Shown here: positions 6,447 through 53,137 of the stretch, piece after piece
Numbering within the stretch: position 1 is the stretch's first letter
Layout: each line of letters opens with the position of its first letter
DNA from: a virus
Length of the DNA stretch: 64,000 bases
Strand: one strand, 5' to 3'
Virus genome (UHGV): UHGV-1550212
Translations under genes and position numbers: made by a program
Notes under the pieces: generated by a model
The model's input: only the letters and a program-made list of their open reading frames with translations
Told to the model about the DNA's origin: nothing
The model's database searches: none

Positions 6447-9400
6447 TTAGAACAGAGCAATGATGTTGTCGACAAACATAAAGCATGCATGCAGCAATTC
6501 AGCTGTCGGCATCATCTCATATGCTTTGCCATCATACATGAATCGCACAGTGACAATGGGTGACACTTCATCTTTGAATGCAAGCACAGGAACATCTACA
6601 CCTGCAGTCAATTGCACTTCAACATCCTTGTCAGCTGCTACATCTTTAGCAATCACTGTAATATCTCGACAACGACCAGCAGCTACTGCATATCTAACAT
6701 TTGTCAATGTAGCAGACATGTCAGCAAGAGCTTGCATGATTTGTTGCTGAGTAAATTGCTCAACTGACTTCTTTGCAGCCTTGACAGCTTCGATATCTTG
6801 TGTGTTTGCAAGAATCAATGCTACCACTGCAGGGTCAGAAGTAGTCCACCAACGACCATCAATTGCAAGCCACAGTCGATTGCCATTGACGTCAATTGCA
6901 TATGCATATTGAGTGTTTGGCGCCAATGCGACTTTTCGAGTGTTCTTTAAGAACTCTGCCGCATCAGGAGCCGCAACAATGTTCTTGACAAATGACGGCA
7001 GCATTTCAGCTTCAAATGTTTGTGTAGCTTCAAAGACACCGCCATGTGCATCGTCATCAATTCTGCCTGCAAAGCGTTTGCAGATTTGAATGATTGTAGC
7101 CATGCCTACCGTTGAAACGACTTGACGTTTCATTGCAGGCATTTGCAGAGGCATTGTATCTTGCGCAATGTACAATGATGTCGTATTAATAGTGTCAAGT
7201 ACTCGTGCAATGTCTGCAGTATCAACAATTACAAACCAGTCGCCGTCATGGCAGACAATAAGTTGCTTGCTGTCATTTGCATATGTCAGCAATACTGCAA
7301 TGTCATTTTTGATTGAGATTGCAGGAATCCATGCTTGTTGCAGAGGTAAGTCAAGATTTGGTGTGCCGCATGGATAAAGCGCAGATGGCTGCATAATTGA
7401 GCGGCAATCAAAACCTATTGAACTTACAAGCTGCAGAACTTCGCCACGAATGCAAGCATTACTTTGATTCTGTGTCATGTCATATGCAAGCCAACTGCAA
7501 ATTGCTTTGATTGATGACACTGGAAATGCTACGCCAATTGTGCTGTATGCAATCTTGCCGTCTGCTGACAATGACTCATCAACTGCAATGCCAGCATCAT
7601 TGAACAATGACATATCAATTGAACAATGGAATTCGCCACCAGGCATTGGACCTGCAGCAATGCCATAGCCAGGACCAAGTGACAGCCATTCTTTCATTGC
7701 ATCTGAATTGTATGACGAGAACTTGTACAACACGTATGACTTATGCGGGTCACTAACTGACTTGCGAATCTCCATCTTGGCGCCTGCTTTCTTTGCAATT
7801 GCTTTAATGTTATCGGCGTGCTTCTTTGCCTCAGACTTATCAAATTTGCCTTCATCAAGTTGAGCAATCTTGCCAAGCGCATAAGCAGTCCATGCAATTG
7901 ACAATTGATTCAGCGCGCCAACTTCTGACCACGACTTTTCTGCAAACCATGAGCCAAGACCAGATTTGTCAAGAGTTTCTTTGCGTTCAGCTTTTGTTGC
8001 AGCATCCCACCACTTGCCTGTTGCAGGCAACACAACGTCTTTGATTTGCTCCTTGCGAAGCTCATTGACACCGATTTTGCCCTCATGAACATGCGCATTT
8101 GCATGATATGCTCTAAGAGCAGCCAATGCAGCATCATATGAGTCATAGTCTTGCGGCCAGAATTCCCCATTCTTGCCAATGATGCCCCATACGCCCTTTG
8201 ACTTTTCTTGTATGACAGAATCTTTGTCACCGGCAGCTTCATTGACAAATGCTGTGTTAAGATACGCAATGACATGCTGAAGCTCTTTGTCATCTGCAGA
8301 CTCATTGACATTCTTAGCGTAATCACCAAGAATTGATTCAACTTTGCCACGCAAATTGCTTGGCATATCATCAAGGTCAAGATTGCCATACTTCGTGACT
8401 TCTGGTTGAGACAATCCAAGCAATTTCAACACCTTATCACGGTACTTGTTTGCGAGCTTCTTCCAAATCCAGCGGAATGTTACAGCGCCAATCAGAAATT
8501 TGATGAGGCCCTCATCAAGTACATGCTGTTCACGCAAATATGACGTAATGCATGAACGTTGACCATCAGTCAAGTCAACCCACATTTTATCAAGCAATAT
8601 TGAATCTGGGTTGCTTGCAATGCCAGCACCACTGCGGTTGTACACATTCATTCTGTCAATTGCTGGTGTTGCGTCATTGTCCCACCAAGCTTGTGCATAT
8701 GAACATCCAGCAGGATTTGAGATTGCCTCATTAATGTACATGACATTGAAGATTTCGCAAAGACGCTTGCGGCATTCATGTGACATAACTTGCCATTGTT
8801 CGGCAATTTTGTCTTCTGACCACTGCAGCAACATGTCTGCAAATTCTTTACCTGCGCATTGCTCAACTACACCATGTTTTGAACGCCAATAATTGTCAGG
8901 CTCAATCTGCGCAATTGCATGAACAAATGAAGTCAGATTGTATGACGCAGATTCGCAAATGCAATGCTGTTCAATGTAGCTACGAACAGCAAGTGCAGTG
9001 TCTTCCGGCAAGTTGCTATATGGTGACTCATAGATGTTTGCTTGCTGATTGAGCATATGTGGAGCAACTTCTGCAATGATTTGCTTGCGAACATTCAATG
9101 GCCATGCATTCCATGAAGATTCTACAGATTCATCAAGATGCATGCCAATTGCATCCATAACTGCATCAGCATCTTTGCCCAACAGTTCGTCAAACAATTT
9201 GTCTACTACTGCAGTGTCATATCGCAAATTTGGCTGAGCTTTTGCAAGAGCATTCATCATTGCTTTGCGTTCTTGTTTTGACGCATTGTTCCATGTGCCA
9301 GCATACAATTCTGCTGTCGCGCTTTCACAGACAATATCTGCAGCAGCATATGCTTGCTTCATAATGTCCATGAAGATTGACTTCATTTTTGGATGCATCA

Positions 9401-9653
9401 CATGATACTTTTCATTGTAGATGTCAAGTACGCCATAAACATCTTTCAATGGTCGAATGCTTTCTGATGAGCCGAATGATGGCTTCAAAATTGAATTGCA
9501 TACACGTTCAACGGTGCCACGCATAAACTTGACATCACTTCGCTTGTCACTGATAGACATAAATGCATCAATGACAGACTTGATGGTGTCATCTGCAGCT
9601 TCATTAACAAAGCCTACTGGTCGACCGCCAAACTTGTTTGTTTGTGTTGTCAT
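6447..9653 (-). CDS. large hypothetical protein (1068 aa), candidate virion/internal head protein
   Basis: ORF track; N-terminus MTTQTNKFGGRPVGFVNE-AADD resembles a cleavable targeting peptide; second FVNE and a YINE inside. Confidence 0.5.
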   Translation of the reverse strand: MTTQTNKFGGRPVGFVNEAADDTIKSVIDAFMSISDKRSDVKFMRGTVERVCNSILKPSFGSSESIRPLKDVYGVLDIYNEKYHVMHPKMKSIFMDIMKQAYAAADIVCESATAELYAGTWNNASKQERKAMMNALAKAQPNLRYDTAVVDKLFDELLGKDADAVMDAIGMHLDESVESSWNAWPLNVRKQIIAEVAPHMLNQQANIYESPYSNLPEDTALAVRSYIEQHCICESASYNLTSFVHAIAQIEPDNYWRSKHGVVEQCAGKEFADMLLQWSEDKIAEQWQVMSHECRKRLCEIFNVMYINEAISNPAGCSYAQAWWDNDATPAIDRMNVYNRSGAGIASNPDSILLDKMWVDLTDGQRSCITSYLREQHVLDEGLIKFLIGAVTFRWIWKKLANKYRDKVLKLLGLSQPEVTKYGNLDLDDMPSNLRGKVESILGDYAKNVNESADDKELQHVIAYLNTAFVNEAAGDKDSVIQEKSKGVWGIIGKNGEFWPQDYDSYDAALAALRAYHANAHVHEGKIGVNELRKEQIKDVVLPATGKWWDAATKAERKETLDKSGLGSWFAEKSWSEVGALNQLSIAWTAYALGKIAQLDEGKFDKSEAKKHADNIKAIAKKAGAKMEIRKSVSDPHKSYVLYKFSSYNSDAMKEWLSLGPGYGIAAGPMPGGEFHCSIDMSLFNDAGIAVDESLSADGKIAYSTIGVAFPVSSIKAICSWLAYDMTQNQSNACIRGEVLQLVSSIGFDCRSIMQPSALYPCGTPNLDLPLQQAWIPAISIKNDIAVLLTYANDSKQLIVCHDGDWFVIVDTADIARVLDTINTTSLYIAQDTMPLQMPAMKRQVVSTVGMATIIQICKRFAGRIDDDAHGGVFEATQTFEAEMLPSFVKNIVAAPDAAEFLKNTRKVALAPNTQYAYAIDVNGNRLWLAIDGRWWTTSDPAVVALILANTQDIEAVKAAKKSVEQFTQQQIMQALADMSATLTNVRYAVAAGRCRDITVIAKDVAADKDVEVQLTAGVDVPVLAFKDEVSPIVTVRFMYDGKAYEMMPTAELLHACFMFVDNIIALF

Positions 9654-12988: not shown

Positions 12989-13030
12989 TGTAACAGTGCA
13001 TTTAAGTGTTTTAACTGTTTTATGTATAAA

Positions 13031-13038
13031 TTGTACAA
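13031..13038 (-). promoter_or_regulatory. TTGTACAA promoter-associated motif upstream of nrdJ
   Basis: about 45 nt upstream of ATG 12988, followed by TTTATACAT. Confidence 0.4.
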
Positions 13039-13058
13039 CAATGGGCAAAATTTTGCAT

Positions 13059-13941: not shown

Positions 13942-15483
13942 TTATCTACTTGCAGAATCCCGCATTGAAGTCATGACTTGCTCTTGAATTGTTATAGGCA
14001 TGATGTTGAAGTCTGACAATTCAGCAATGTCATCAACGTCAAGAGCTCTCAATGTATCTGTGGTGCAACAAGTCACAATGATTGACTTGCGAACAAACTC
14101 ATCTGCGACATTCCACAATAGTTGACAAATTGCTCGATTGTCAAGACAAATTTCATTAACTGTACGAACAAGACTGTACCATGCAGTCACATTGTTGCGT
14201 TTCAGAGTTTCAAGCATATATCGTGCAAGCCCAAAACCTGCTACATATAACCCAGTCTGTTTGTTGAATGACTCGATTGCGTATGCATCAAACAATGCTT
14301 CTGTCATCAAGGGCATTGCTGCAGTCATTCTGTAGTATCGATAGTCAACGCAGACAATTAGCCAGTTAACATATGAATTGACTGCATATGCATATGCCTT
14401 GAAGCCAAGGTCATTCAAGATTTTGCAAACAGCATTGTAAGTCGATTCATCAGCATTGCCAAAGTTTGCAAGCAACTTAACTTTCAGAATGTCTTCACCA
14501 ATTGCATTTCTTGTAGCAGTGAATGATGGCATACATGCAAAGCTTCTTTTGCAGATGTCTGTGATAAGTTGCTGTGCATCATTTACAAGTTGTCTTGCAG
14601 CCTCAGCACGTTTTTCAGACTGTGCTTGATATTTTGGTCGCAACTGTGATGAGCCAGTCGCAGCACCATATCGCATAGCAGCTTGCCAGTCCTTGAGATT
14701 ATTTTGCAATTCACGAACATAGTCTGCAGCAACCATTGCAGATGGAGTTCTTTGTTGCTCGATTAGTTTGTTGATGTTTGCAAGCACATCTGATGCAAAC
14801 ATATCTTTTGGCTTGACTCTTGCAATTTCAGCAAGCACTGCCGGTACACGAGCAATACCGCGAGGTTCATTTGAAACTACTACTGCATAGTCTACAAGTG
14901 CCTCACATACAAGCTGCTCATCAACAAAGTACTCAGGATTCTGCACAGCATCTTCAACAACTGCAATCAATGTTGCTCTACGATTGTCATCAGGTTTGTT
15001 GCCAAACAGCTCAATGTACAGCATGTCTGCTTGCTGGTCTGTCATTGAACCTGCGATGTCAATTGACTTTGCAAGTTTGTTAAGCAGTTCAGCTTGCTTA
15101 CTTGACAATCTGACTTTGTATGACGACTCTACGGCTTCTTTGACTGCTTTGAGTTTTCTATCAATGTCAAGGCTGCTTTCATTGACATTCATGCCGACAA
15201 TACTTGCAGCTTCAGTGTTAAATTGCTCAACAGTTTCTGCTGCAGTTATTGGCACTGACACAATAGATTGTTTTGCATTTGCTGCAAGCTGATTGAGTCG
15301 ATTGACTGCTTCAGAATCTTGCACAACTGCAAGATATCTTACGCACAGCTCATCAATCTGTGAAAGATAACTTTGGGTCATGTTTATCGAAAAAATGTTG
15401 TTTCTTGACGAATAGCTGTTGGATGCAATTTGCGGAAACACTTCGACATTTCTAAGTTCTGATGATGACAACAATGTTTCCAT
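13942..15483 (-). CDS. hypothetical protein (513 aa), possible virion protein
   Basis: ORF track; contains GMNVNE-SS motif. Confidence 0.45.
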   Translation of the reverse strand: METLLSSSELRNVEVFPQIASNSYSSRNNIFSINMTQSYLSQIDELCVRYLAVVQDSEAVNRLNQLAANAKQSIVSVPITAAETVEQFNTEAASIVGMNVNESSLDIDRKLKAVKEAVESSYKVRLSSKQAELLNKLAKSIDIAGSMTDQQADMLYIELFGNKPDDNRRATLIAVVEDAVQNPEYFVDEQLVCEALVDYAVVVSNEPRGIARVPAVLAEIARVKPKDMFASDVLANINKLIEQQRTPSAMVAADYVRELQNNLKDWQAAMRYGAATGSSQLRPKYQAQSEKRAEAARQLVNDAQQLITDICKRSFACMPSFTATRNAIGEDILKVKLLANFGNADESTYNAVCKILNDLGFKAYAYAVNSYVNWLIVCVDYRYYRMTAAMPLMTEALFDAYAIESFNKQTGLYVAGFGLARYMLETLKRNNVTAWYSLVRTVNEICLDNRAICQLLWNVADEFVRKSIIVTCCTTDTLRALDVDDIAELSDFNIMPITIQEQVMTSMRDSASR

Positions 15484-23474: not shown

Positions 23475-25232
23475 CTACTCTGCTTTTGTTGCTTGCATCA
23501 GTTCAGCAAAGCTTACAGTGTAAGCATCTTCACCAACAGTCACATATGCAGCATCAACATTTGAGTCATTGCCTGTGTATGCAACCAAGGTGCCTGCTGG
23601 AATTTCTACACCGTCAATTGTTAGCATCGAATTGACAAGCTTGTATGTCTTGTTATCTTCGAAGTTCTCATTGACATATGCAGCAGCAATCATTGTTGAA
23701 CGTTTACGAGATTCATTGACAAAGCTTGCGCCAACAAGTTCTGACAGCTTCTTCTTTGTTGCTGCAGAGCATTTGTCATATGCAATGTCAATTGCGAGGT
23801 CTACATCACCAAGTTCCTTTGCAATGAGTTCATCAATCTGAGACAGCTTCTTGTCATCTTTGACAGCGACAAAATTCATTGCAAACTTGCGAGCGTTGTC
23901 TGACAATGATTCATCAATGTTCCACTGTTTCATCAATGTCTGCTTCAACACCTTGTCAAGTTCTGACCAGTCCTTATCTGCAAGAGTAGTTGCATCAAAG
24001 TCTTCATTGCTGAACTGCTTCAGCACTTTGACTTTGTCATCATGTGACAATGCTGACCACTTGTTTGCAGCGTCTTCAGCAGATTCAAGCAGAGGCTTGA
24101 TTGCATCTTTGAGTTCTTGCGGCCAAGTTTCAGGCGCTTTGAGCAGCATCTCAGATGAGTTGTACTCAAGCATGTCTGTCATGATTGCAAGCTTGACATT
24201 GTTAGCTTTCTCTTCAGGTGACAGAGCTTTGAATTTTTCAGCCCAGTCTTCAGATTCAGTCACGATTGATGCAGGCTTTGCAAAACCAGCAACAAAAACG
24301 AGCTTGTACATGATGTTCGTCATGAATGAGCAAGCTGCATCGATATCTGACTGAGTTGCTGCAGATTGAGCATCACGAATGTTGAGCAATGCCTGACGAA
24401 GAGACATAATGCCTACAACAGGGTCAGACCATGTCAATACAACTGAACTATCGATTGTGATGCCCTTGTCAAATCGCATATTTTCTGCAATGCGGTCAGC
24501 AAGTTCAGGCAGTTCAGTGTAGTACTGCTCAAGCGCTGCATGTGCAGCAGGAATTGAAACTTTTGCAGCATCAAATGCGTTGTTGATGTGCATAACATGC
24601 GCAGTTTGAATTGACTGCATCAACATCGACACTACTGCAGATTCTGTTGCAACATCATCTGTTGCAGCTTCATTAACAAATGACGCCATTGCATTTTGCA
24701 GCATGTATTGATGGTCTCGTACTGGCAACTCAACAATTTCAAAGCCTTCAAGAGACTTTGGCGAATCAGTTGCTGAACCTGCTTCAAGACACTTCTTTGA
24801 TGCATTGTCAATGACAAACCACATCTTTTGTGCTTTGAGTGCAATGTAAGTCTTGTCTTTTGATTGCTGAACAGTCATGTTGTCAAGAGCCAACGCACTG
24901 ATTGGCAAATTCTTGACTGCTGACTTGTCAAGTGCTTCATTGACTGCTACATTGTCATCACTCATTAACTGAGTATTTGCAGCAAATGTTGCAGAATCAA
25001 TGCTAAGCTCTTTGCCATCAGGCATAGAGAACTTAACTGCATCTGCAACATCAAGCACTTGCACCATGGCGCCTGCTTCGACTTTGTCATCACCAACAGC
25101 GAACTCAGTTACAACCTGATATGCCTTGTTAGCTTCAACAGTTTCAACAGACTCCATAATGAACTTTGCTGTACTGCAAGAGATTTTGTGCTTTTTCATG
25201 TTCATGTATGAATTTGAGTGTTTGTTGTTCAT
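23475..25232 (-). CDS. hypothetical acidic protein (585 aa), candidate head/internal protein
   Basis: ORF track; motifs SFVNE-A, SFVNE-S, YVNE-N, AVNE-A. Confidence 0.5.
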   Translation of the reverse strand: MNNKHSNSYMNMKKHKISCSTAKFIMESVETVEANKAYQVVTEFAVGDDKVEAGAMVQVLDVADAVKFSMPDGKELSIDSATFAANTQLMSDDNVAVNEALDKSAVKNLPISALALDNMTVQQSKDKTYIALKAQKMWFVIDNASKKCLEAGSATDSPKSLEGFEIVELPVRDHQYMLQNAMASFVNEAATDDVATESAVVSMLMQSIQTAHVMHINNAFDAAKVSIPAAHAALEQYYTELPELADRIAENMRFDKGITIDSSVVLTWSDPVVGIMSLRQALLNIRDAQSAATQSDIDAACSFMTNIMYKLVFVAGFAKPASIVTESEDWAEKFKALSPEEKANNVKLAIMTDMLEYNSSEMLLKAPETWPQELKDAIKPLLESAEDAANKWSALSHDDKVKVLKQFSNEDFDATTLADKDWSELDKVLKQTLMKQWNIDESLSDNARKFAMNFVAVKDDKKLSQIDELIAKELGDVDLAIDIAYDKCSAATKKKLSELVGASFVNESRKRSTMIAAAYVNENFEDNKTYKLVNSMLTIDGVEIPAGTLVAYTGNDSNVDAAYVTVGEDAYTVSFAELMQATKAE

Positions 25233-28021: not shown

Positions 28022-29737
28022 TCAAATCCAGCCGTAGTCGCTGTGGATAGCGAAGGTGAGATAAGCCAACTCGGGATACATACCCGTCTCCGCGAGAGCG
28101 TAATCCGACTCAATCAGCAACTTAGGTGCTGCTGTACCCTCAGCGGTTAATTCCACACTTGATGCAAGGTCATATGGCATGAATACACATCCCTGGTTGA
28201 CATTCTCTACGTCAACGCCGTCAGCAGTCTTGTTCGTACGAAGAACGAGAACAGTGTTATCGTTCAGCGGCTGCTTAGGATTGCAATAGATTTTAATGCC
28301 AGCCAAGTCACCTGCATAATACAGGTTCTTGTTGTCCTGTACCAGCGTATTGTCAAGAGCTGCAACAAAGTTCTTCTGAGCCTTAATTGCAACCAAGGCA
28401 ATCGTATTGACCACAGCAGCATCACCAGCACCGAAACGCGACAGGTTGCCAATGATTGTCGAAGCAGCCAGGATACGAGTTGCGATACGAGCCTGACGGG
28501 TAATCTGGTTCTCAGCCGAGCTGTTCGATTCAGCGTTAGGAACCATGCCGAACTCAGCCGTGCGGTCTACACCCATCTTGTCAACGAATGCAGGAGCCTG
28601 GAATTCCGAGAATGCCTTGGCAGTCGAACCAGCGTAGCCAATGTACAAGTTCAGGTTGTAGCCCTGAGCAGCCAACAGCTGAGCATGTGTCGTAACACCA
28701 AGTGCACGCATGCGCTTCAGACCATTGTCGTTGATTGACTGCGTGATTTCATTCTGCATTGCATTCTTGATGATTGCAACTGCATCCAAACCGCGAGCAC
28801 GGAGGTCCTTAACCTGGCGACGAGTCAGAGCACCCCAAGTCTGGTACGTCTTAACTTCGATAGCCTTTGAGAAGGTGCGGAGCTCCAGCATGTTCGGGTT
28901 GCCAGCCTCAGCCTCAGAACGAGACATTGGATTGCCGTCAAGGTCATCCATTGCAGCGAAGCCGTGGATGTGTTCGTCACCAGCCGAAACCAGGTCGAAC
29001 ATAACCTCAGTCATGCCAGTCAGCATGTCAGTTACAGCACCTGTAGCGTCAACCGAGTAGATTTTCGATGCAGCCATTGCAACATCAGCCAACGACTTGT
29101 CAGGAGCAACAGTCATTGCGCCACCAGCGCCAACGGTATATACGCCTTCATTGCGAACTACGAGGTAGCCTGCAACACGCGATACCTGTACGAACGTTAC
29201 CTTGGCAGCAAGCTCACCAGCAGCTGAACCGCCGATGTACAGAACTTGACCCTTCTTGAGGCCATGAACCATTGTCTGCGAAGCAACATTGTACAACTCC
29301 TTCCACTTGATGAGGAAGTAGCGAGGACCCTTGGCTGCGTTCAACTTGCCACCACCATACACGTAGTCTACATAGTCCAGCTGAACCAGCGGGCTGTATA
29401 CAGGAATGGCCGGGAGCAGGTCGAACAGAATCGTGTTGGCTGCGATGTTCATGTTCAGAGCCAGAACATTGGCAGCTACATCGATTGAACCACGCTTACG
29501 CGACGGGTCATGGAACTGTGCTTGCGTACCTGGGTCAGCAGGGAAAGCGACCGGACCTACGCCATTGAGATTCTGCGAATACGTCGACTCAAACGACTCG
29601 TTCATATACTGAACGTTCTGAGCGATTGATGCGAGCAGATACTTCTTAGCGGGCGAAAGCTTGGAGTCAAACGACTCATCAAGAACAGGGCCCCACTTTT
29701 TCAGCAATGCATCAATCTGTGTACGTTTTGCGTTCAT
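28022..29737 (-). CDS. major capsid protein (T4 gp23-like)
   Basis: N-terminus MNAKRTQIDALLKKWGPVLDE parallels the gp23 N-terminal pattern; 571 aa; markedly GC-rich C-ending codon usage; followed by a strong terminator. Confidence 0.7.
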   Translation of the reverse strand: MNAKRTQIDALLKKWGPVLDESFDSKLSPAKKYLLASIAQNVQYMNESFESTYSQNLNGVGPVAFPADPGTQAQFHDPSRKRGSIDVAANVLALNMNIAANTILFDLLPAIPVYSPLVQLDYVDYVYGGGKLNAAKGPRYFLIKWKELYNVASQTMVHGLKKGQVLYIGGSAAGELAAKVTFVQVSRVAGYLVVRNEGVYTVGAGGAMTVAPDKSLADVAMAASKIYSVDATGAVTDMLTGMTEVMFDLVSAGDEHIHGFAAMDDLDGNPMSRSEAEAGNPNMLELRTFSKAIEVKTYQTWGALTRRQVKDLRARGLDAVAIIKNAMQNEITQSINDNGLKRMRALGVTTHAQLLAAQGYNLNLYIGYAGSTAKAFSEFQAPAFVDKMGVDRTAEFGMVPNAESNSSAENQITRQARIATRILAASTIIGNLSRFGAGDAAVVNTIALVAIKAQKNFVAALDNTLVQDNKNLYYAGDLAGIKIYCNPKQPLNDNTVLVLRTNKTADGVDVENVNQGCVFMPYDLASSVELTAEGTAAPKLLIESDYALAETGMYPELAYLTFAIHSDYGWI

Positions 29738-32709: not shown

Positions 32710-35547
32710 CTACTCAGCAGATGCACCTTGCAGTGACAATGTTGTACGATGTACGCCAATTCGAATGCCTTGAGCATTGATGATTTCAGTGTCAAGTACA
32801 ATGAATCCGCGAGCAATCGTTTCATCATCATTGTTGCTGCTATCGCAGACATTCGTGTACGAAACTGCGCCACCGGCTGCAACGATGCCATCCATGAAGT
32901 TGTCTGCTTTTGTTTTGACCTGCAAACGAACATTTGCAGTGTTTCGTTTGTACTGAGCAGACTTCAGATATGGCTCAATGTTGTCAGCGACATAGATGAG
33001 CAACTCAAGATTTTCAATGTAGCTGAATGCGCTGGTGTAAGCTACTTGTGCAGAACGAGATGTCAGCATTGTGATGACGCCTTGGTCTGAACGAGCGAGC
33101 ATGTTCCAACCTGCAGGTTCAAGGTCATCCATATCAGACCCTTCACCTTGCGAGACAATCATGTCAATGTCGGTTACACCAACACCAGACAGTGGCCACT
33201 CATCACCAGCAACGACGTCAAAGACATGCTTGCCTGCTTCTGTATGCTTTCTCATGAAGACATTCGACAAGATACCTGTTGCAGGAATCGTCATATCATC
33301 AATGCCATCATTGTAGCGAACATTGGCTACATATGTGATGAACGGTGCGCCATCAGTTTGACCTGCGAAGCTGAACAACTTGCTGTATGGTTTATCGGTG
33401 TTACCACCTGCAGCACAGTACTTAGACTCAATTGGGTCACCTGCATTGTCCTTAAAGTACGGGTCAGTTGAGCGGAACAAGTCATACTTGGTTGGCAGAG
33501 CAGAGAATGCGATTGCACGTTTTGAATCATTGCAAATCTTTGCAAACTCGTACTTTTGATTTGCTGCAATGTATGTCTTGAATGGGTCAACTACATAACG
33601 CCATTGACATTGATTGTGGTCCATCAAGCTACGATAAACGCCGCCTGAAATGAGAGCTTGCAGTACTTCTGTCTGACGTGCAGATGTGCCATCAACAAAT
33701 TGAGTTGCACGAAGAGCTACACCATGTAGATATGCGCCCTTGAAGAACTTAACTTGGTCAACAAGCTTCGTCAATGACCAAACAGACGCCTGCGAGGCGT
33801 ACTTCATCATTGAGCCATCTGCAAGTTCAAATTCGCCTTCAGCACCTGCAGCTTTGTATGCCAATGCACCAGTGAATTGATATTCAATCAGCACTTTGTT
33901 TTCTGCAAATGCGTCGTAGACATTCTTCTTCTCAAGCGGCGACAAATCAGCTTCAGTGATTGTGATTGGCATACCGCCATACTTGAGTGGCTTGTCTAAT
34001 GGCAGGCCATTTGAATCATATTCAACAAGGTCACCGCCATATGAAATTGTCTCACCTGCAGCTCTTGCTTTACGAGCTTTCGTTGATGAAGTTTCTGCAT
34101 CTGCAGACTCTTCGCCGCCAATTATGACTGTTGAGCCTTGTGGATAGATGAAGTTGCCCTTTGCATCCTGAGGGAATGCTACCTTTGCACCTGATTCGTT
34201 AGTGTACATTGGAATGCCGCCTTCCTTGCCAATGACAGGAACTGCGCGATATTCAGCTACAACTGCGCGACTTGTACAACGTACTGGCGAGCCATCTGCA
34301 CCAATAAAGATGTCGCCAAGCGAAATTGGCAACACTGGTGCAACAAATGAAGTCTTTGAAGCTTCACCTGGCTGCACAAATGGAACCATCACATTAACAA
34401 ACTCAGATGACACGAAGTCCTTGAGCTGTTCTTTTGTGATTGCGACATCTGTTGCTGTTGGCGTGCAGTCAATCTTTTCAGGATTGATGTCAGTTGACGG
34501 ACGAGCCATGCCAAGATATTGATGCGTAGCATCATCAGCAAACAGTGGACCTGCAGCGTCATCTACAGAAATGTAGTTCGAACCAAAGATGTCCACTGCA
34601 CGTTGGAAACGAGCATCTTCGATATCATTCGAATTGTAGAACTCGTCAACCTTGTCAGGGTCAATCTTACACATGATACCCGTCGTGTCTGACACTGCAT
34701 TCACAGCAGTTTCCAATGACAACTTGTTACCATTGATATCAAGCAAGTCAGGAATCAATGAGCCAGATACACGACCCATGTAGCCAGATGCAGCAAGCTT
34801 TGACAATGCCTCAGGACCATACATGCCATCAACTTGTGCACGGATACCATCCTTTGTGAAGTACTTGCCATATACAGTCGAACCTGCAAGTGACTCATAG
34901 TTCGTCAGCTTTTCAGAGAAGAACCAAACGTCAACCATATAGTCTGACACAAGGTCATTGCAATTCACGCCAGGCACATACATTGATGGGAAGCGGTCTT
35001 GAACTGACTTGATATCATAATCATAGCCAGTCAATGTCGTCGGCGTAATGAAGATTGTTGCAGACTTGTTTGTAAGTGTTGAGAAGTTGAGCAGTTGTAC
35101 AGGGTCAGTGCCAACTGCATTGAGCAGATTCAATGGCTCAGCTTTCCAGAAGTTTGATGTATCATAGACATCCTTAAATGGAACGTCTACAGGCGAGCCA
35201 TCTTCTCCTGAGCTGTTTGCAGCAAAAGTCACTCGTGACAACACATCGCTATCATTGAATGAGCGCAAGTTCAACACAAGAATTGGGCTTGTTGCAAGCA
35301 TTTGCTCTGCAATGAGACCAGCGAAACAGCCGGCACGCTCCAAACGCTTGTCACGTTGACCGAAAATTTCATGCAGCTGGTCTGCATCTTCAACAAGCGC
35401 GGCGCGATTGACCGGACCGTTCTTCCACTGGCCAGGCAGCAATCGAAGTGTTTGAGCGGGCAGTGAGTCAAGGCGACTTGCGTCAATGAACAGACGATAT
35501 GTCCCGACTGACTTGAACCGTTCAAATAAAGAAGTGTTATTTGCCAT
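32710..35547 (-). CDS. contractile tail sheath protein (gp18-like)
   Basis: N-terminal pattern PGQWKNGPVNRAALVEDADQLHEIFGQR parallels the gp18 W-GP...FG motif; large protein immediately upstream of tube gene; ATG at 35547. Confidence 0.65.
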   Translation of the reverse strand: MANNTSLFERFKSVGTYRLFIDASRLDSLPAQTLRLLPGQWKNGPVNRAALVEDADQLHEIFGQRDKRLERAGCFAGLIAEQMLATSPILVLNLRSFNDSDVLSRVTFAANSSGEDGSPVDVPFKDVYDTSNFWKAEPLNLLNAVGTDPVQLLNFSTLTNKSATIFITPTTLTGYDYDIKSVQDRFPSMYVPGVNCNDLVSDYMVDVWFFSEKLTNYESLAGSTVYGKYFTKDGIRAQVDGMYGPEALSKLAASGYMGRVSGSLIPDLLDINGNKLSLETAVNAVSDTTGIMCKIDPDKVDEFYNSNDIEDARFQRAVDIFGSNYISVDDAAGPLFADDATHQYLGMARPSTDINPEKIDCTPTATDVAITKEQLKDFVSSEFVNVMVPFVQPGEASKTSFVAPVLPISLGDIFIGADGSPVRCTSRAVVAEYRAVPVIGKEGGIPMYTNESGAKVAFPQDAKGNFIYPQGSTVIIGGEESADAETSSTKARKARAAGETISYGGDLVEYDSNGLPLDKPLKYGGMPITITEADLSPLEKKNVYDAFAENKVLIEYQFTGALAYKAAGAEGEFELADGSMMKYASQASVWSLTKLVDQVKFFKGAYLHGVALRATQFVDGTSARQTEVLQALISGGVYRSLMDHNQCQWRYVVDPFKTYIAANQKYEFAKICNDSKRAIAFSALPTKYDLFRSTDPYFKDNAGDPIESKYCAAGGNTDKPYSKLFSFAGQTDGAPFITYVANVRYNDGIDDMTIPATGILSNVFMRKHTEAGKHVFDVVAGDEWPLSGVGVTDIDMIVSQGEGSDMDDLEPAGWNMLARSDQGVITMLTSRSAQVAYTSAFSYIENLELLIYVADNIEPYLKSAQYKRNTANVRLQVKTKADNFMDGIVAAGGAVSYTNVCDSSNNDDETIARGFIVLDTEIINAQGIRIGVHRTTLSLQGASAE

Positions 35548-35653
35548 GTTCGTTATCGTATTTGTTGTAAATTGTGAAATGTTGCTTTGTTTGATTATAA
35601 CTTGATATATGTATGTATATGATGACATCAAACATGTTGTTGACCAAAATCAA

Positions 35654-35704: not shown

Positions 35705-38700
35705 TTAGCCACGAATCAAGTCAACCAAGCGTTGCTGTTCAGGAGTCAATGAAGACTTTCCGCTGCCATCAATGTTTTCGTTAACGAAACCGACTGGCTG
35801 CTTAGTCGAATATGACTTGATTGCAGCCCAGTTACGTGAACGATAGAATGCTGCGACATCTGACTCATTTACGAAAGTGCGAACTGCTGCCTGAGTAGCA
35901 ATCAATGACTTCTGTTCAGGAGTCAAGCTTTCATAAATGTACTTGTATGCTGTTGGCATATGCTTCAGATACAATGGTGTATGGTCAATTGGCTGCAGGT
36001 TCTCATCCAAGACTGCTACACCAGCAGCATCATAGCGAGTTGCAAGCTGCTTTGTTTGACGACGCAATGCAGCAATTTCATGCTTGATGCTTGTCAAGCA
36101 TTCATCAGTTGCTTGTGCGCCAAGATATGTGCGAAGCATATCAGACAGCATCTTCTGATTTGCATCGGTCAAATCACCTGCAACTTCAATGCCAGTCAGC
36201 TGGCCATCTTTGCTGATGACTACAGAAATTGTAGAACCGTCGCGTTCAACTGTGCGGAAGTCAAAGTCATCGTATGACTTATCCTTAAGGACAGCTTCAC
36301 GAATATTGTCATCTACGCCTTCATTGACCATGCTCATGCATTCCTCAACATCTACGTCAAGTCCAAGCTCTTCTGCAGTTTCAGCAATCTTTTCTGCAAG
36401 CTGAGCTTTATTCTCAACTTTGTCAAGGTCTGCTGCATCTGATACAGCATCGACAAGTTCATCTGCCTGTGCACGAGTAATCGTTGAAGCATCAACAAGG
36501 CCATCAATGATTTGCTCTACATCTGCAGGTGTCGGCTTGTTGTCTTCTGCTGCTTCATTGATAAACTTGGCAGTCTTTGGCTTGTAGCTAAGCTTGCCCT
36601 CATTGACCATCTCATCCTGCAATTGTGCAGCGATGTATGCAATTAGCAATGACTTGTTGGCTTCAAGTTCATCGACTGCTTCAGCAGACTTTTGAGCTTT
36701 GATGAGTTCATCGTAAGCTGCTGCAACTTTGTCATCCATCGTAGACTTGTCAGGGTCAATGTTTTTGATGCATGTCTTGACAATATCATCCTGATAGAAC
36801 TTGTCAATGATTGATTTGTCTGTGTCAGAGTATGTTGCATATAACTTGTCTGCGACAATTGATTCATTGACAATCTTGCCTGGCTCAGATGCAGGAACAA
36901 GAGTCCACTTACCATCAACTTCTGCAACAATGCCTGAAGTCGATTCGCCATAAGTGACTGTTAGACGAGTGCCTGCTTCATTGTTGTCAATTGTGTTGAC
37001 GACTGCTTCGAATTCATTACCATCAGCGTCATAGATTTTGATGCTGTCACCGACAGCAGCTTCATCTACTGGTGCTTCGAAGAACTCTTTGACAAAGTTC
37101 TGAACATCAACGGGCAGACTGTCATATGGCTGTGATGCATAGTACTCTGAGTCAGCATCAAGGTAATTCTTTGAAAGCAGCCAAGCTTTTCGAGTAGCAA
37201 CATCTGCAGCATTCCAAGCATCGACTGACTCATCGCAGTCATCGACAAGTGCAAGATACTCATGGTCTTTCTTGTCATCAAAACGAAGAGTAATCTTTTG
37301 TTCGGGCTTGCCAGCAGGCCAAACTTCGACTTCAATTTCTGTAGTGCCTGCAACATTTTTGACTGTGCCTACAACAATCTTGTCGCCTTTGTTGATGCCA
37401 TTAGACATGTCGTATGGTGCTTCAATAGATTCATCTGTCGACTGAGCTCGAATTGCTGCAGCAATAGCATTACGAGATTCATTGTCGAACATCTCCCATG
37501 TAGCATTCGCAGCATCTTCTACACCAATCTTGTCTTTGCCAACCTGCTCAATCAACTGATTGCGGTCAGCTACTGAAGCATTGTACCACCAGTCTGCAGC
37601 AGTGTCAGATGCTTCATTGACAAATGCATTGAGCAATGCAGTCTGAACGTTATCAGGCAACTTGTCAAAGTCAACAAGCTCTACGTCATCTGCAATATTT
37701 GCTTGCTTTGCTGTTGCTTTACGGCCATCTGCATCAGACTTATTCCAGTCATCAATGAATGCCTGTTCAGCAGCAGATTCATCAAGCGCTTTGACAGTTT
37801 CATATCGACCGTCATACAGCATGTACTTATCGCCTTCTTTGATGGCTACAGACTCCTTGCCATTGTACTTGAATGACACTTTGTCACCATTGAAGCCGGT
37901 CAATTCAGCTGTGATTTTATCGCCATTCTTGTCATACACTTCAACTGTCTGCTCTTCATCAATGTTCAAGTGCTTCTTGAGTGCATCTACAAGTTCTTTG
38001 CCAAGAGCGTCTTCATTGTCATGGGCTTGCTGGAAGCAATCTTCATCTGACTTGTCAGGCTGAACAGCTTTCAATGCTGTTGCCCGATTAAGCATTGACA
38101 TCGTGCCCCAGATTGACATGAAGCTTTTGCCCTCATTGTCTTGTGCTTCGGCTTCGTCAATTGCATCAATGTCTTTCTCAAGCATTGCATGATGAGCAAT
38201 GTCGATGCCAGACCATTTCGTCTTTGCATTATATGGCAAACCAATATGCTTCGACAAAATTGACTGACGTTGGTCATCTGTGAATGAATCCCAAGCTTCG
38301 CCAAGTGTTGCATGCTTTGCTTCATCAGCAGCAAATTCTGTTTCAATCTTAAGTTTGTGGTCCTTGTCAATCAGTTGCCACTTGGCATTTGGACGATAGA
38401 ACTCAGACAATGACAGCTTGTCAAGAATGACTTTGCGTTCGTCATCTGACAATTCGTCCCACTTGTTGTCAGCAGATTCATCGATGTTGACGAGTTCTTT
38501 CTCAATGAGATTCTTGTCAAGCATTGCATCAATGATTGGCTGCTGGGCTTCTGCTGGAATGTCTTTGAACGACTTAATTGCAATGACAGCGTCTTTGTCA
38601 TCAACTTTAGCAGCTTCAACAATTTCTGTCTTCACTTCATCAGTCAAAGCGCCCCAAGCAGCATCGAGATAATCAAAGTTGAGAGCTTCATCACATTCAA

Positions 38701-39820
38701 CAATGCCATACTGCTTTGCAATGTCATTGTGCTTGTCAAGATTGCTGTTGAGTTCAGCTTCAATTGCTGCTTTGATGTCATCAATTGACTTATCTTCAAC
38801 TTCAAGCTCAAGAGCTTTTGCAAGTTCAGTCAATGCTGCATCATCAAGCTTGCTAATGTCATAAGGCTTAGCATCTTCATTTGTGAAGTCAATGCCAAGC
38901 AAAGACATTGCTTGCTTCTTGTTTTCTTCTGAGAGTGCATCGAATGCAGTTGCAAGACCGACATCGGTGTAGTCGCACCCAACTTCGTCAAGTAATGCTT
39001 CGACTTTCTGGATGTTTTCTACGCCAACTTCGTTAGCATCAGCATTGTTGTATGCCTCAACAAAACGTGATTGGTTTGTCATGGTAGTGAAATCTTCTAT
39101 TGATTCGTTTATGAGTTGCTGTTTGAGTGCATCCAATGATGCTGAGCCAATCAATGCATCAGGGAATAGCTTCTGCAACATACCTGTACGTGCAAGCTCA
39201 ATCAATTGGAGCATCAATGAGTTTGGCGAGTCTTCGTCATCTACAGATTCACAAATGAGAGTGTCTTTTGATTCATTAACTGAACCGACAAGATTGAACT
39301 CTGCATTCGAAAAGCCTGGCTGTGCAACCAAATCAAATGTCACGATTTTGAGAAGCTGAACTCTGCCAGTAGTTGGATTGACTACGCCAAGGGCGCGACT
39401 TGAAATGAACAATGGCGAACCTGCTGTAACAATTGCCCATGCAATGCGACCTGCAGGCGTATCAAGAATTGTAATGTAGCCTTCAAAACGTCGTTTTTCA
39501 GGATTCCATTCAATACTGTCCAATCTGTGGCTTACGTTTCCATAACGTACAGTACGTCGCTTAACATGTTCAAGTTCGCCAAGAAGTCGCTTTGCTTTAA
39601 TTGCAGGTTGCAATGCCTGTACTTGAGCAAAGTAATTCTCAAAGTCATACGTGCGCCCATTTTCGTTTTTCTGGTCCATGTATGCATACACGCCAAAAAG
39701 ACGACCAAGTGCGCCGCTTGGCACATGAGAATCTTCTGCTTCAACTACAAACTGACAATCTGCGCGGCTTTCAAGCATAAGTGAGGCTTCCCTGCCTTTG
39801 TACTTATATGACTTTGCCAT
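35705..39820 (-). CDS. prohead protease-like N-terminal domain fused to ~1200-aa acidic scaffold-like region
   Basis: N-terminal ~190 aa with GELEHVKRR and LFISSRALGVV (gp21-like His/Ser context); remainder highly acidic with nine aliphatic-N-E motifs; ATG at 39820. Confidence 0.5.
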   Translation of the reverse strand: MAKSYKYKGREASLMLESRADCQFVVEAEDSHVPSGALGRLFGVYAYMDQKNENGRTYDFENYFAQVQALQPAIKAKRLLGELEHVKRRTVRYGNVSHRLDSIEWNPEKRRFEGYITILDTPAGRIAWAIVTAGSPLFISSRALGVVNPTTGRVQLLKIVTFDLVAQPGFSNAEFNLVGSVNESKDTLICESVDDEDSPNSLMLQLIELARTGMLQKLFPDALIGSASLDALKQQLINESIEDFTTMTNQSRFVEAYNNADANEVGVENIQKVEALLDEVGCDYTDVGLATAFDALSEENKKQAMSLLGIDFTNEDAKPYDISKLDDAALTELAKALELEVEDKSIDDIKAAIEAELNSNLDKHNDIAKQYGIVECDEALNFDYLDAAWGALTDEVKTEIVEAAKVDDKDAVIAIKSFKDIPAEAQQPIIDAMLDKNLIEKELVNIDESADNKWDELSDDERKVILDKLSLSEFYRPNAKWQLIDKDHKLKIETEFAADEAKHATLGEAWDSFTDDQRQSILSKHIGLPYNAKTKWSGIDIAHHAMLEKDIDAIDEAEAQDNEGKSFMSIWGTMSMLNRATALKAVQPDKSDEDCFQQAHDNEDALGKELVDALKKHLNIDEEQTVEVYDKNGDKITAELTGFNGDKVSFKYNGKESVAIKEGDKYMLYDGRYETVKALDESAAEQAFIDDWNKSDADGRKATAKQANIADDVELVDFDKLPDNVQTALLNAFVNEASDTAADWWYNASVADRNQLIEQVGKDKIGVEDAANATWEMFDNESRNAIAAAIRAQSTDESIEAPYDMSNGINKGDKIVVGTVKNVAGTTEIEVEVWPAGKPEQKITLRFDDKKDHEYLALVDDCDESVDAWNAADVATRKAWLLSKNYLDADSEYYASQPYDSLPVDVQNFVKEFFEAPVDEAAVGDSIKIYDADGNEFEAVVNTIDNNEAGTRLTVTYGESTSGIVAEVDGKWTLVPASEPGKIVNESIVADKLYATYSDTDKSIIDKFYQDDIVKTCIKNIDPDKSTMDDKVAAAYDELIKAQKSAEAVDELEANKSLLIAYIAAQLQDEMVNEGKLSYKPKTAKFINEAAEDNKPTPADVEQIIDGLVDASTITRAQADELVDAVSDAADLDKVENKAQLAEKIAETAEELGLDVDVEECMSMVNEGVDDNIREAVLKDKSYDDFDFRTVERDGSTISVVISKDGQLTGIEVAGDLTDANQKMLSDMLRTYLGAQATDECLTSIKHEIAALRRQTKQLATRYDAAGVAVLDENLQPIDHTPLYLKHMPTAYKYIYESLTPEQKSLIATQAAVRTFVNESDVAAFYRSRNWAAIKSYSTKQPVGFVNENIDGSGKSSLTPEQQRLVDLIRG

Positions 39821-39953
39821 ATTTGAATTGTGTTTGAAAGTTTGCAAATTTTTGTTGTTATTGATTATATATGCAAGGCAGACTTGTGTGTTGAAAAATT
39901 GCAAAATTTCAGTTATGTGTACATAACAAAACCATCCAAATCAATTCAATTAT

Positions 39954-41167: not shown

Positions 41168-42961
41168 TCAATTTTGTGTTGCAACGTCATCAGTCTTGTT
41201 ATCAACTGGCTCATCGTCGACATGTGTATCAACATCAATGCCAGAAGCTGCAGCAAGTGAAACATCATTAGCGACGCCTTGTTGTTCAAGTTGTTGTTGA
41301 GCTTGCTTTGTTTGAATTGCGACAAGTCTTGCAGCTTCCATTGCAAGCTTAAGATTCTCTTGAAGTTCGATATCAAGCTGTTCAGCATTAGCTTGCATGT
41401 CTTCTTTGCTTAAGCCAAGATACTTGTTGATAAGCCAATTGCTTGAGAAGAATGGGCGTTCAGTATCAGACATGTTAAGTGAACGAACAAGTGAACTGCG
41501 AATGTCTTCGATTGTATGAATACGCTTCTGAAGCAATGTGAGCTCCATTTGCGTCTGGAAATGATTGTATCTATTGAATTTGAGTTTTAGCGCATTCAAA
41601 ACTTCATTGTCGCCAATGTAGTTATTGTTTTTGATGCACATCAAAACATACACAGGCTTCAATATGATTGCAATGCCAAATCTACGCATCAAAGCTGAAA
41701 TAAAGATTGCAAAACGACGCTCATCACGCTGAATTGACTCTTCAGAAACATTCCACATGCCACCGCCATCATCGAATCTGCTTAGAGGCAGCTTTGACAG
41801 ACGTTGTAAGTTATTGCGGAAATATGTGACTGCTGAAGTATCAGATAAGTCAGGCATGCCTGTGCCAATTGTTTGAATGTTGGGTTTGCCTGCATTAGTG
41901 TCAGCCATCCAAAATTCGCTATTGAAAGGCACAGATGCTTCGCCATTAACTTGGAGTTCGCCGGTTTGATTGTCGAATTCAATTTTTTCGTGGTACTTAT
42001 TCATTGCTTTACGCAATGTTTCCTGTGCAGCAGCTTTCAGTTTACCGCCAGTAGGAATTGTGATAAGTGAACGAAAACGAGAAGCTGTCGTAGCATATGC
42101 AATGCGACTTCGCTCCAAAATCCTGAGCAAGTTGAATGCACGAACAAGACGCTCAAAATATGACATAGACCCAACCATGTCATCGTTCCACTGCAAATAT
42201 GCTACTTGCGAATCAAGCAAGTTGATTTTTTCTGAGTTGTTAGACACAAATGCTGGTGCTTTGACATCAAACATTGTATGTGTCTTGAACATATCTTGTT
42301 GAGACTTATCATACTGCCAGAAGAACATTTCACCCTTCTTCATAGGCGTCAATGCAAATGCATTCAACTTTTTGATGCCAACAATATCAGTCGGCTCATC
42401 TGCATTATCAAACACAATCTCATAGCCAAGTCTGCCTCGTACAAGATATTCACGCAACAATGCTCTAACATCTTGTTTGCGAGGTTCAGAGTTCAACCCA
42501 TTGAATGCATACATCAAATAGACTTGCTTGAATGCATCCATAAAGTCATCTTTGATTGTCTGCTTTGCTGTGTCGTCTATCTCAAGTTTATCGATGTCAC
42601 AAAAATCAGGCTCGCAAAAGAAATTACTATCGGAATTGAACACGATGCACTCATCAATCATGCGGTCAAGAATGTCGTCGAGTTCCGGTTCTGCACTTAA
42701 GATGTCATATTTTTTGGCTCGAAGATAACTTGTCAATCCAAAAAGATTCTTTTTAGGTGACTCTTTCTGATTGAACACGTCATCAGTAGACAACACAACA
42801 ACTTCTTGGTCATTGATGTTATGCTCACCTGTATATGCTGCTTTCTCCAAATCTGCATCAGACCCAGACTTGTGCACATTCAATTGCTGCAATGGACTGT
42901 CTTTCGGAATTGAGCGTAATGCATCAGTTCCCAGATATGTTCGTTTGGTCTTTTTAGCCAT
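41168..42961 (-). CDS. portal protein (gp20-like), putative
   Basis: 597 aa, basic N-terminus and acidic C-terminal tail; segment KDDFMDAFKQVY...RALLREYLVRGRLGYEIV fits the portal pattern; located upstream of protease/scaffold. Confidence 0.5.
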   Translation of the reverse strand: MAKKTKRTYLGTDALRSIPKDSPLQQLNVHKSGSDADLEKAAYTGEHNINDQEVVVLSTDDVFNQKESPKKNLFGLTSYLRAKKYDILSAEPELDDILDRMIDECIVFNSDSNFFCEPDFCDIDKLEIDDTAKQTIKDDFMDAFKQVYLMYAFNGLNSEPRKQDVRALLREYLVRGRLGYEIVFDNADEPTDIVGIKKLNAFALTPMKKGEMFFWQYDKSQQDMFKTHTMFDVKAPAFVSNNSEKINLLDSQVAYLQWNDDMVGSMSYFERLVRAFNLLRILERSRIAYATTASRFRSLITIPTGGKLKAAAQETLRKAMNKYHEKIEFDNQTGELQVNGEASVPFNSEFWMADTNAGKPNIQTIGTGMPDLSDTSAVTYFRNNLQRLSKLPLSRFDDGGGMWNVSEESIQRDERRFAIFISALMRRFGIAIILKPVYVLMCIKNNNYIGDNEVLNALKLKFNRYNHFQTQMELTLLQKRIHTIEDIRSSLVRSLNMSDTERPFFSSNWLINKYLGLSKEDMQANAEQLDIELQENLKLAMEAARLVAIQTKQAQQQLEQQGVANDVSLAAASGIDVDTHVDDEPVDNKTDDVATQN

Positions 42962-52993: not shown

Positions 52994-53137
52994 AAGATAT
53001 TGTGAATTTGGTTGTTTATTCTTAACAAAATATGTACATACAGATGCAACAGATGATATGTCAGATACACAAAGCTGCATAAAATGACCAGACTTGCAAA
53101 TAAATTTAAGCAAGTCTGGTCATCAGTTTTGATTGCA

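Follow-up and report, generated by a model that had tools for sequence, protein, structure and literature searches.

A short peptide motif of the form FVNE↓A (an aliphatic residue, Asn and Glu followed by a small residue; the arrow marks the predicted cut) recurs in six proteins encoded in a 64,000-nucleotide stretch of the virus genome UHGV-1550212, hereafter the window, and we propose, with a probability of about 80%, that it is the recognition site at which the phage's own gp21-like head-maturation protease cuts after Glu. The window (41% G+C) carries nearly all of its genes, and every feature for which coordinates are given below, on the minus strand. It is part of an uncultivated jumbo myophage whose head follows the T4 plan (gp20-like portal, gp23-like capsid, gp21-like protease), an assignment that follows from its capsid, portal, sheath and head-fibre genes and from its relatives among isolates and IMG/VR contigs. 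An earlier note on this DNA had described the motif under positions 6447–9653 as a candidate maturation-protease signature analogous to that of T4 gp21, whose consensus is (L/I)-x-E. The analogy holds at the level of sequence, in that the enzyme, the capsid type, the placement and conservation of the sites, and the related isolates all agree; the coordinates cover a single motif-bearing gene, and the other five of the six lie outside them. From computed enrichment, site positions, conservation, and protease and capsid homology, we infer the cutting, the sites used and the order of events.

The motif was far more frequent than protein composition predicts. The earlier note had proposed a comparison with a shuffled proteome, for which we used 2000 within-protein shuffles of 75 non-overlapping open reading frames (ORFs; 20,559 amino acids (aa)). 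FVNE occurred 9 times against 0.14–0.17 expected, [FYWM][VIM]NE 18 times against 1.15, and [FYWM][VIM]NE[ASGNQ] 15 times against 0.33; none of the 2000 shuffles reached any of these counts. As a guard against post-hoc choice of pattern, all tetrapeptides were ranked, and FVNE came third, after only the low-complexity repeat PEPE/EPEP. All the sites that the earlier note had listed were found at the residues it gave. In the 1068-aa protein these are GFVNE↓A at E18, YINE↓A at E309 and AFVNE↓A at E472, to which NVNE↓S at E451, which it had overlooked, must be added; in the 585-aa protein, AVNE↓A at E99, FVNE↓A at E188, FVNE↓S at E507 and YVNE↓N at E522; in the 429-aa protein, F27-V28-N29-E30↓S; in the 513-aa protein, NVNE↓S at E102; and in the capsid protein, Y44-M45-N46-E47↓S. 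The nine sites assigned to a protease–scaffold fusion protein are present as [VIM]NE[ASGN], of which only six have F, Y or M at P4 as the stricter pattern demands (positions are numbered outwards from the predicted cut, P1 being the Glu).

The restriction to Asn at P2 proved too narrow. We counted [VILM]-x-E-[SAGN] in the six candidate proteins for each residue x, and found 20 sites with Asn (1.04 expected; z = 18), an enrichment that is partly circular, since the proteins had been picked on Asn, together with 11 with Asp (1.7 expected; z = 7) and 4 with Cys (0.2 expected; z = 8), residues that had played no role in the selection. The other 16,000 aa of the window contain no Asn site, against 2.7 expected. 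P2 thus also tolerates Asp and then Cys (N > D > C), which roughly doubles the number of candidate sites in the earlier note's list. The resulting working consensus, [F/Y/x]-[V>I>L]-[N>D>C]-E↓[S>A>G>N]-x-[D/E]-D, describes 37 sites in six proteins. At P3 these have Val (20), Ile (8), Leu (6), Ala (2) or Met (1). Positions outside the site definition also show preferences: Phe is 5.9-fold enriched at P4, and downstream there is an acidic preference, with Asp or Glu at P3′ in 15 of 37 sites and Asp at P4′ in 13 of 37.

By this broader definition, site counts exceeded those of the shuffled proteins in the fusion (16 against 1.96 expected; p < 2e-4), the 1068-aa protein (10 against 0.89; p < 2e-4), the 585-aa protein (5 against 0.77; p = 8e-4) and the 513-aa protein (3 against 0.56; p = 0.018). 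The sites lie in N-terminal propeptides and at domain boundaries, and are dense in an acidic, scaffold-like tail. No good match was found in the ribonucleotide reductase, portal and sheath genes, taken here as non-head genes. Four further matches were set aside: SWVNE↓M in a 202-aa endolysin-like ORF lies upstream of both the probable Met start and the ortholog-matched region, and RWVNE↓F in the ribonucleotide reductase, SYVNE↓Q in the DNA polymerase and HFVNE↓R in a 307-aa ORF lack the small P1′ residue and are probably chance matches.

Several relatives bear on what follows. In tblastn searches with the capsid protein, the nearest isolates, all from Bacteroidota hosts, were the Chryseobacterium phages MA9V-2 and MA9V-1 (37%), 'Sphingomonas' phage PAU (35%), whose host is really a Sphingobacterium, going by the title of a paper cited in PMC10537231, and the Tenacibaculum phages PTm1 and pT24 (34%). 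The Lak megaphages were more distant. Among IMG/VR sequences, L001 (a 175.6-kb contig) is a strain-level relative in which the capsid protein is 99% identical and the protease fusion only 91%, and L002 is moderately diverged (capsid 74%, fusion 35% identity).

The candidate enzyme is encoded within the head-gene module. A gene for a T4-type (gp20-like) portal (41168..42961; Pfam Portal_T4, 4e-59) lies directly upstream of the gene for the protease–scaffold fusion (35705..39823; 1372 aa, 16 motif sites), and the genes for the tail sheath (32710..35631) and the capsid protein lie downstream. The fusion ORF as listed begins at TTG 39904; ATG 39823 (MAKSYKYKG...) is the likely true start, because alignment with the L001 and L002 orthologs puts the start at MAK. 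The N-terminus matches the head maturation protease family phrog_207 (4e-32), the homologs in two more distant lineages, L009 and L010, carry a precomputed PF03420 match, and a five-sequence clade profile matches T4 gp21 (PDB 5JBL; E = 1e-6); a PDB search with the single protease-domain sequence gave nothing useful. In the clade-profile alignment, the His in GELEH and the leading Ser in ISSR are matched to two 5JBL positions that, going by the wild-type T4 sequence, we take to be Ala substitutions of catalytic residues, and H86, S141 and D164 are invariant among the five aligned sequences. By family match and catalytic residues, the domain (39272..39823; ORF residues 28–211, 184 aa) is, as far as sequence can tell, a T4 gp21-type prohead serine protease (MEROPS S77, herpesvirus-assemblin fold).

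What follows the domain looks like a substrate. The site GSVNE↓SKD directly ends it, with LICE↓S 8 aa further on, and the post-domain site is kept as INE↓S in L002 and MA9V-2. Mature T4 gp21 is about the same size as the 184-aa domain. The tail (aa 212–1399; 1188 aa) is acidic (isoelectric point 4.3; 20.6% Asp + Glu) and has 15 further sites; if cut at all of them it would yield pieces of 8 to 209 aa, as expected of a scaffold or core protein that is cleared from the prohead. The same fusion architecture occurs in MA9V-2 (gp209, 1207 aa, 'prohead core protein serine protease', 24 xxNE sites), MA9V-1, PTm1 (ORF300, 564 aa, 'prohead core scaffolding protein and protease', 12 xxNE sites), L001, L002, L009 and L010, for which reason we rejected an assembly artefact; in PAU, the protease (gp151) and scaffold (gp152) are separate genes. 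The fusion of L001 differs from that of the window by an indel of one complete inter-site unit: it lacks exactly the 55 aa between E709 (ALDE↓S) and E764 (FVNE↓A), window positions 37613–37777, and reads ALDE↓ASD.

The gp23-type major capsid protein (28022..29737; 571 aa) has an N-terminal extension that ends in a hydrophobic-x-E↓small site ahead of the capsid fold. It scores 41.2 bits against Pfam Gp23 (cut-off 24.4) and matches phrog_28442 (2e-117), and the top Foldseek match of its AlphaFold2 model (predicted local distance difference test (pLDDT) 76) is mature T4 gp23* (E = 4e-16), so that both family profile and fold are those of gp23 and its HK97-like relatives. A PDB search with the single sequence gave nothing useful, and a five-sequence profile reached only E ~0.5 to T4 gp24. 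The predicted propeptide (aa 1–47; 29597..29737) contains the sites VLDE21↓S and YMNE47↓S. Among 34 representative homologs (32–76% identity), the first site has Glu in 33 and I, L or V at P3 in all 34, and the second is hydrophobic-x-E↓small in all 34, usually exactly 11 residues ahead of an invariant GxG. P2 of the second site varies by lineage (Asn in 14, His in 8, and otherwise one of K, R, M, V, L, Y and F); Asn as a specificity at P2 thus applies to the present lineage, but the capsid family as a whole varies P2 while keeping P3, P1 and P1′. The model has helices at residues 2–23 and 29–44, which the two sites flank, and then a disordered stretch at 44–88, consistent with a two-helix propeptide that would come off at E47 or be trimmed back to it. 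In T4 gp23, similarly, the first 65 residues are lost, after ...LTE↓A.

The 1068-aa protein (6447..9653) is a modular, polyprotein-like candidate for an internal head protein, with sites at E18, 110, 175, 234, 309, 381, 451, 472, 601 and 693. It is a near-orphan: megablast of the gene against the phage collection gave no match and a word-indexed homolog search returned only one 97%-identical copy, whereas an exhaustive phmmer search recovered 15 relatives with varying combinations of its modules. It begins with an 18-aa propeptide, MTTQTNKFGGRPVGFVNE↓A (9600..9653), in which MxxN[KR]FGG[TR]P followed by hydrophobic-x-E↓[SA] is kept in six homologs (P0083, P0085, P0086, P0087, P0088 and P0089) with N, M or D at P2; by analogy with the T4 capsid-targeting sequence (CTS; PMC5694885) this leader is a candidate capsid-targeting sequence. 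At the other end, a 375-aa domain without motif sites (aa 694–1068; 6450..7574) is the predicted mature product, starting SLSADGK..., and in all five homologs the motif directly precedes it (AVDE↓SLSADGK, AIDE↓ALSEDGK, HVNE↓SLSEDGS, YINE↓ALSTDGK and YINE↓AMSLNGK). This domain is a separate gene in P0090 and in MA9V-2 (gp237), with a leader of only 7–8 aa, MS(K)NYINE↓A. Because it starts right after the motif here and stands alone elsewhere, the motif, on sequence evidence, marks the boundary of an evolutionarily mobile domain, as a processing site would. MA9V-2 encodes a site-rich protein, gp236 (1044 aa, 23 xxNE sites), upstream of gp237, and for this reason the 1068-aa protein looks like a fusion of a gp236-like site-rich region with a gp237-like domain. 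AlphaFold2 with a five-row alignment modelled the C-terminal domain at a pLDDT of 48, and tblastn of the domain against phage records gave no informative annotation, isolate homologs being labelled 'hypothetical protein'. A mini-domain bracketed by motif sites (VIQ.K..G.WGI.GK.G.FW..DYD....A..AL.AYH; aa 476–526, window positions 8076–8228), which includes 'KKPNGKWGI...AYH', lies in the 59-aa unit between E472 and E531 of this protein; it recurs in otherwise unrelated phage proteins (P0091–P0096), including an 80-aa stand-alone version, and is absent from Pfam.

Three further proteins are candidate substrates. The 429-aa protein (50206..51495) has a single site at E30 (ANFVNE↓SLAQ), with a predicted 30-aa propeptide (51406..51495) whose pattern GIKAxTxxGxNFVNE↓[SA] is kept in MA9V-2 gp197, a protein 35% identical overall; a tblastn search of phage records with the 429-aa protein yielded nothing informative by way of annotation. 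Short leaders that end at a predicted protease site (18 aa, ending FVNE↓A, in the 1068-aa protein; 30 aa, ending FVNE↓S, in the 429-aa protein) make both predicted internal or ejected head proteins of the T4 type. The 585-aa protein (23475..25232) has five sites (E99, 188, 441, 507 and 522), and four of the five P1 Glu residues are kept in its 34%-identical L002 ortholog. Residues 197–311, inside the 253-aa fragment E188–E441, match DUF5856 and phrog_858 ('starvation-inducible transcriptional regulator'); a PDB sequence search with the core of the protein gave no match of use. This region is possibly Dps-like, and its inter-site location would make it a packaged protein. The weakest member is the 513-aa protein (13942..15483; candidate sites NVNE102↓S, LVCE194↓A and NADE346↓S), for which we found no homologs in related loci and no family matches. 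The label of head component, which the earlier note had given to all six proteins, is therefore statistically solid for the 1068-aa and 585-aa proteins, the fusion and the capsid protein, but weak for the 513-aa protein, given its p value, and for the 429-aa protein, where only the N-terminal place of the single site and its conservation in MA9V-2 gp197 speak for it.

Two other ORFs have sites of related form. A 224-aa ORF (18456–19130) starts MQSLYE↓ARLELAKAEYE↓ALV, resembling the LYE↓A leaders of PAU head proteins, and may be another processed head protein without Asn at P2. The 307-aa ORFan at 58652–59575, among replication genes, has, besides HFVNE↓R, the broad sites HIDE↓A and SICE↓S (p = 0.01), which could be chance or mark an additional substrate.

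The motif is conserved as a protein feature and characterizes a clade. In four ortholog pairs the P1 Glu was kept at 22 of 33 motif sites, compared with 72 of 205 other Glu residues (Fisher p = 9e-4). Aligned sites interchange N, D, C and T at P2, for example FVNEA/LLDEA, LICES/FVNES and MVNEG/MICEH. When the P2 count was repeated on the head-region loci of relatives, Asn was at or near the top: 48 sites against 5.5 expected in MA9V-2 (z = 18), 13 against 2.8 in PTm1 (z = 6.5) and 14 against 4.8 in PAU (z = 4.3), where Tyr (LYE↓A) reached 15 against 3.2 (z = 6.8); L002 had Asp at 15 sites against 3.3 expected (z = 7.1) and Asn at 10 against 2.5 (z = 4.7). Leaders recur as well. PAU gp142, gp153 and gp154, two of the three labelled 'internal capsid protein' in GenBank, begin MKT..LYEAKLNE↓A, and small proteins beside the protease of L009 begin MKTLINFINE↓A and MKSLSSFIME↓N; both resemble the CTS of T4 internal proteins, MKTYQEFIAE↓. 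In the L009 and L010 lineages the grammar relaxes to hydrophobic-x-E↓small, often with Asn, and their capsid sites (IHE↓S and LRE↓A, respectively) showed no clean covariation of P2 between capsid and scaffold. Given the looser P2 of these distant lineages, confinement of P2 to N/D/C, combined with Val at P3 and Phe at P4, is, by sequence comparison, a sharpening specific to the lineages of the window and of MA9V.

Characterized systems provide a frame for these predictions. The proteases of T4 (gp21) and of phiKZ and SPN3US all cut after Glu and remove N-terminal propeptides, often at several sites (PMC5694885, PMC10052503), and T4 gp21 cuts scaffold and core proteins to short fragments (PMC5694885). 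With T4 the window shares a homologous protease domain with aligned His and Ser, a gp23-type capsid, a gp20-type portal, an aliphatic P3, Glu at P1 of the predicted cut, a small P1′, a capsid propeptide with more than one site, and short N-terminal cargo leaders; degradation of the scaffold to peptides, known in T4, is here predicted. It differs in that P3 is mostly Val rather than Leu or Ile, P2 prefers Asn > Asp > Cys but is free in T4, and there are extra preferences at P4 (Phe) and P3′/P4′ (acidic). Moreover, a scaffold-like tail of about 1190 aa is joined to the protease, whereas T4 genes 21 and 22 are separate, and the cargo is long, multi-site and polyprotein-like, whereas T4 internal proteins are small. 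The proteases phiKZ gp175 and SPN3US gp245 (MEROPS S80) likewise belong to giant phages and cut after Glu, specifically after S/A/G-x-E or A-x-E, with Ser favoured at P1′; head proteins there have long multi-site propeptides, and the protease removes its own C-terminus (PMC10052503, PMC5694885). The long multi-site cargo of the window is closer to this style. Their P3 is small (A/S/G), unlike the aliphatic P3 here, so the 37 sites as a set are not of the S80 type; capsid and protease are of another, more diverged lineage, and a fused scaffold is not reported there. MA9V-2, PTm1 and PAU, although only 30–37% identical in sequence, are closest in organization: the first two share the fusion and an equally dense hydrophobic-N-E↓S/A signature, and PAU shares 'internal capsid protein' genes with KLNE↓A leaders (gp142/153/154) but has a separate protease and scaffold and also uses LYE↓A. 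A protease in frame with a scaffold, released by self-cleavage, is also known from the herpesvirus assemblin–scaffold (UL26 type) and from lambda C/Nu3, which have the same protease fold; herpesvirus sites are Ala↓Ser, unlike those here, and beyond the shared fold there is no similarity in sequence.

By analogy with T4, the steps might be as follows. The fusion, the propeptide-bearing cargo (the 1068-aa, 585-aa, 429-aa and possibly 513-aa proteins) and the capsid protein would co-assemble into a prohead. The protease would release itself by a cut at GSVNE↓S, right behind its own domain, and cut the scaffold tail into about 16 pieces of 8 to 209 aa, which would exit the shell. It would also strip the two-helix N-terminal propeptide from the capsid protein at E21 and E47 and trim short N-terminal targeting peptides and internal linkers from the cargo, so that the mature domains, such as residues 694–1068 of the 1068-aa protein, would stay in the head.

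A number of observations weigh against this proposal. The window's protease domain scores 22.5 bits against Pfam Peptidase_S77 (PF03420), below the gathering cut-off of 27, so that its membership of the family rests on the PHROG match and the clade profile. By count, neither the capsid protein alone (2 sites against 0.39 expected; p = 0.057) nor the 429-aa protein (1 against 0.36) is significantly enriched. In P0083, several of the 1068-aa protein's internal sites lack a conserved counterpart (4 of 10), and these may lie inside folded domains and hence be uncut. P2 is not limited to N/D/C in more distant capsid homologs and scaffolds; because of this freedom, Asn may reflect a local structural preference, for example helix capping, rather than an S2 pocket. 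A literature search found no proteomics or N-terminal sequencing for PAU, PTm1 or MA9V-type phages, the MA9V-1 paper providing only a gel (sodium dodecyl sulphate–polyacrylamide gel electrophoresis); nor did the accessible literature on PAU, PTm1 and the MA9V phages contain a description of the motif.

Other explanations were weighed. The motif could be a docking or targeting signal that binds scaffold or shell and is either uncut or cut only in its N-terminal copies, in keeping with the conserved, targeting-like leaders in which those copies sit (NKFGGxP...FVNE and GIKAxT..NFVNE) and with the heptapeptide PVGFVNE common to the N-terminus of the 1068-aa protein and the C-terminal end of the fusion. 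We consider this unlikely: most copies are internal and multiple and fit the grammar of a Glu-specific prohead protease (aliphatic P3, Glu P1, small P1′), copies lie precisely where domains begin that in other phages begin a gene, and pure docking would leave the 16 copies in the protease's own tail, and the copy right after its domain, unexplained. The specificity of the gp21-like domain is itself predicted, SPN3US-type phages have a diverged protease paralog (PMC5694885), and the analysis covered 64 kb of a contig at least 175 kb long, so that a host protease, or a second phage protease encoded beyond the window, might do the cutting. That this is so seems very unlikely, since the head genes yielded no protease homolog other than the gp21-like one, the sites are densest in that protein's own polypeptide, and the motif tracks the phage lineage across the hosts Chryseobacterium, Tenacibaculum and Sphingobacterium.

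The modular make-up of the 1068-aa family, with its variously combined domains, and the absence from L001 of exactly one inter-site segment of the fusion are what one might see if the motif were an inherited linker, a short functionless module spread by duplication or recombination among fast-evolving paralogous head genes. We give this a slimmer chance still: outside about P4 to P4′ the sequences around the 37 sites cannot be aligned, unrelated folds (capsid, protease tail and cargo) carry the motif, the P1 Glu is kept at about twice the rate of other Glu residues while flanks diverge, and synonymous codons differ among copies (GTT/GTC/GTA, AAT/AAC, GAA/GAG and four different Ser codons). This synonymous variation argues for selection at the protein level, and it also counts against a signal in the DNA (e.g. 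GTCAATGAA) that is merely read through translation. Such a signal was suggested by GTC, which is over-represented at the Val codon of the sites (12/20). GTC is, however, also used in 39 of 58 VN dipeptides outside the motif, and the excess was rejected as a genome-wide codon-pair bias before A-starting codons. In the minus-strand genes of the whole window, GTC is the Val codon in 125 of 268 cases before other A-starting codons but accounts for just 23% of all Val codons. Since none of the 2000 shuffles reached the observed counts, and with mixed synonymous codons at the other positions, a DNA-level signal or a chance or compositional artefact is already refuted and retains next to no credibility.

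Cleavage by the gp21-like protease is thus the reading that we retain, and it most likely represents a lineage-specific version of a textbook mechanism, one that leaves the accepted picture of head maturation unchanged and would not surprise a specialist. Its use lies elsewhere. Only a few phage groups (T4 and phiKZ/201phi2-1/SPN3US) have an experimentally defined prohead-protease motif, and the present one is a sharp, easily scored signature for a poorly studied clade, the jumbo phages of Bacteroidota and their uncultivated relatives. The signature predicts which ORFans are packaged in the head, their mature N-termini and the dismantling of the fused protease–scaffold, and it might serve as a targeting-and-release tag with which to load these capsids with foreign proteins. 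A more speculative extension, which we regard as possible but doubtful, is that the motif punctuates true polyproteins, the 1068-aa and 585-aa proteins and MA9V-2 gp236 (23 sites) being strings of independent modules, such as the 59-aa E472–E531 mini-domain unit, that are each released in the prohead as a separate small protein or peptide. If so, phages would gain, lose and swap modules as cleavage-site-bounded units, of which the 55-aa E709–E764 unit missing from L001 could be an example, and through the N/D/C grammar at P2 one could read directly from sequence which proteins uncultivated Bacteroidota jumbo phages, and possibly Lak-type megaphages, package and eject.

The remaining genes of the window add some detail. 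A 536-aa head-fibre protein (51503..53113) matches Head_fiber_dimeric (6e-21) and has PEGA domains, which suggest head fibres like those reported for the Tenacibaculum phages PTm1 and PTm5. Five paralogous homing-endonuclease-like ORFs (350–460 aa; DUF7487; phrog_3339; RYG and YDCGH motifs) are scattered among the head genes, at 25483–26565, 26613–27674, 29826–31217, 42982–44220 and 48405–49604. L001 has a different endonuclease complement around its capsid gene; in PTm1 and MA9V-2, too, an endonuclease-like gene lies beside the capsid gene.

The gene adjoining that of the 1068-aa protein encodes the large subunit of ribonucleotide reductase (9767–13048; Pfam Ribonuc_red_lgC, 5e-74), has no good motif site and is apparently interrupted by an intein (Intein_splicing at aa 338–517, below the Pfam cut-off). 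The family-B DNA polymerase is split into two genes about 2.3 kb apart (53138–54430 and 56724–58229), one with the exonuclease domain and the start of the polymerase, the other with the polymerase core; the gap contains several ORFs, MazG-like and dUTPase-like ones among them. In MA9V-2, too, a short 'DNA polymerase family B' gene occurs, beside a TnpB. Finally, a 231-aa protein (31951–32646), encoded between the sheath gene and tail/head genes, contains a long (PE)n repeat of about 20 PEPE units, the most over-represented peptide of the window.

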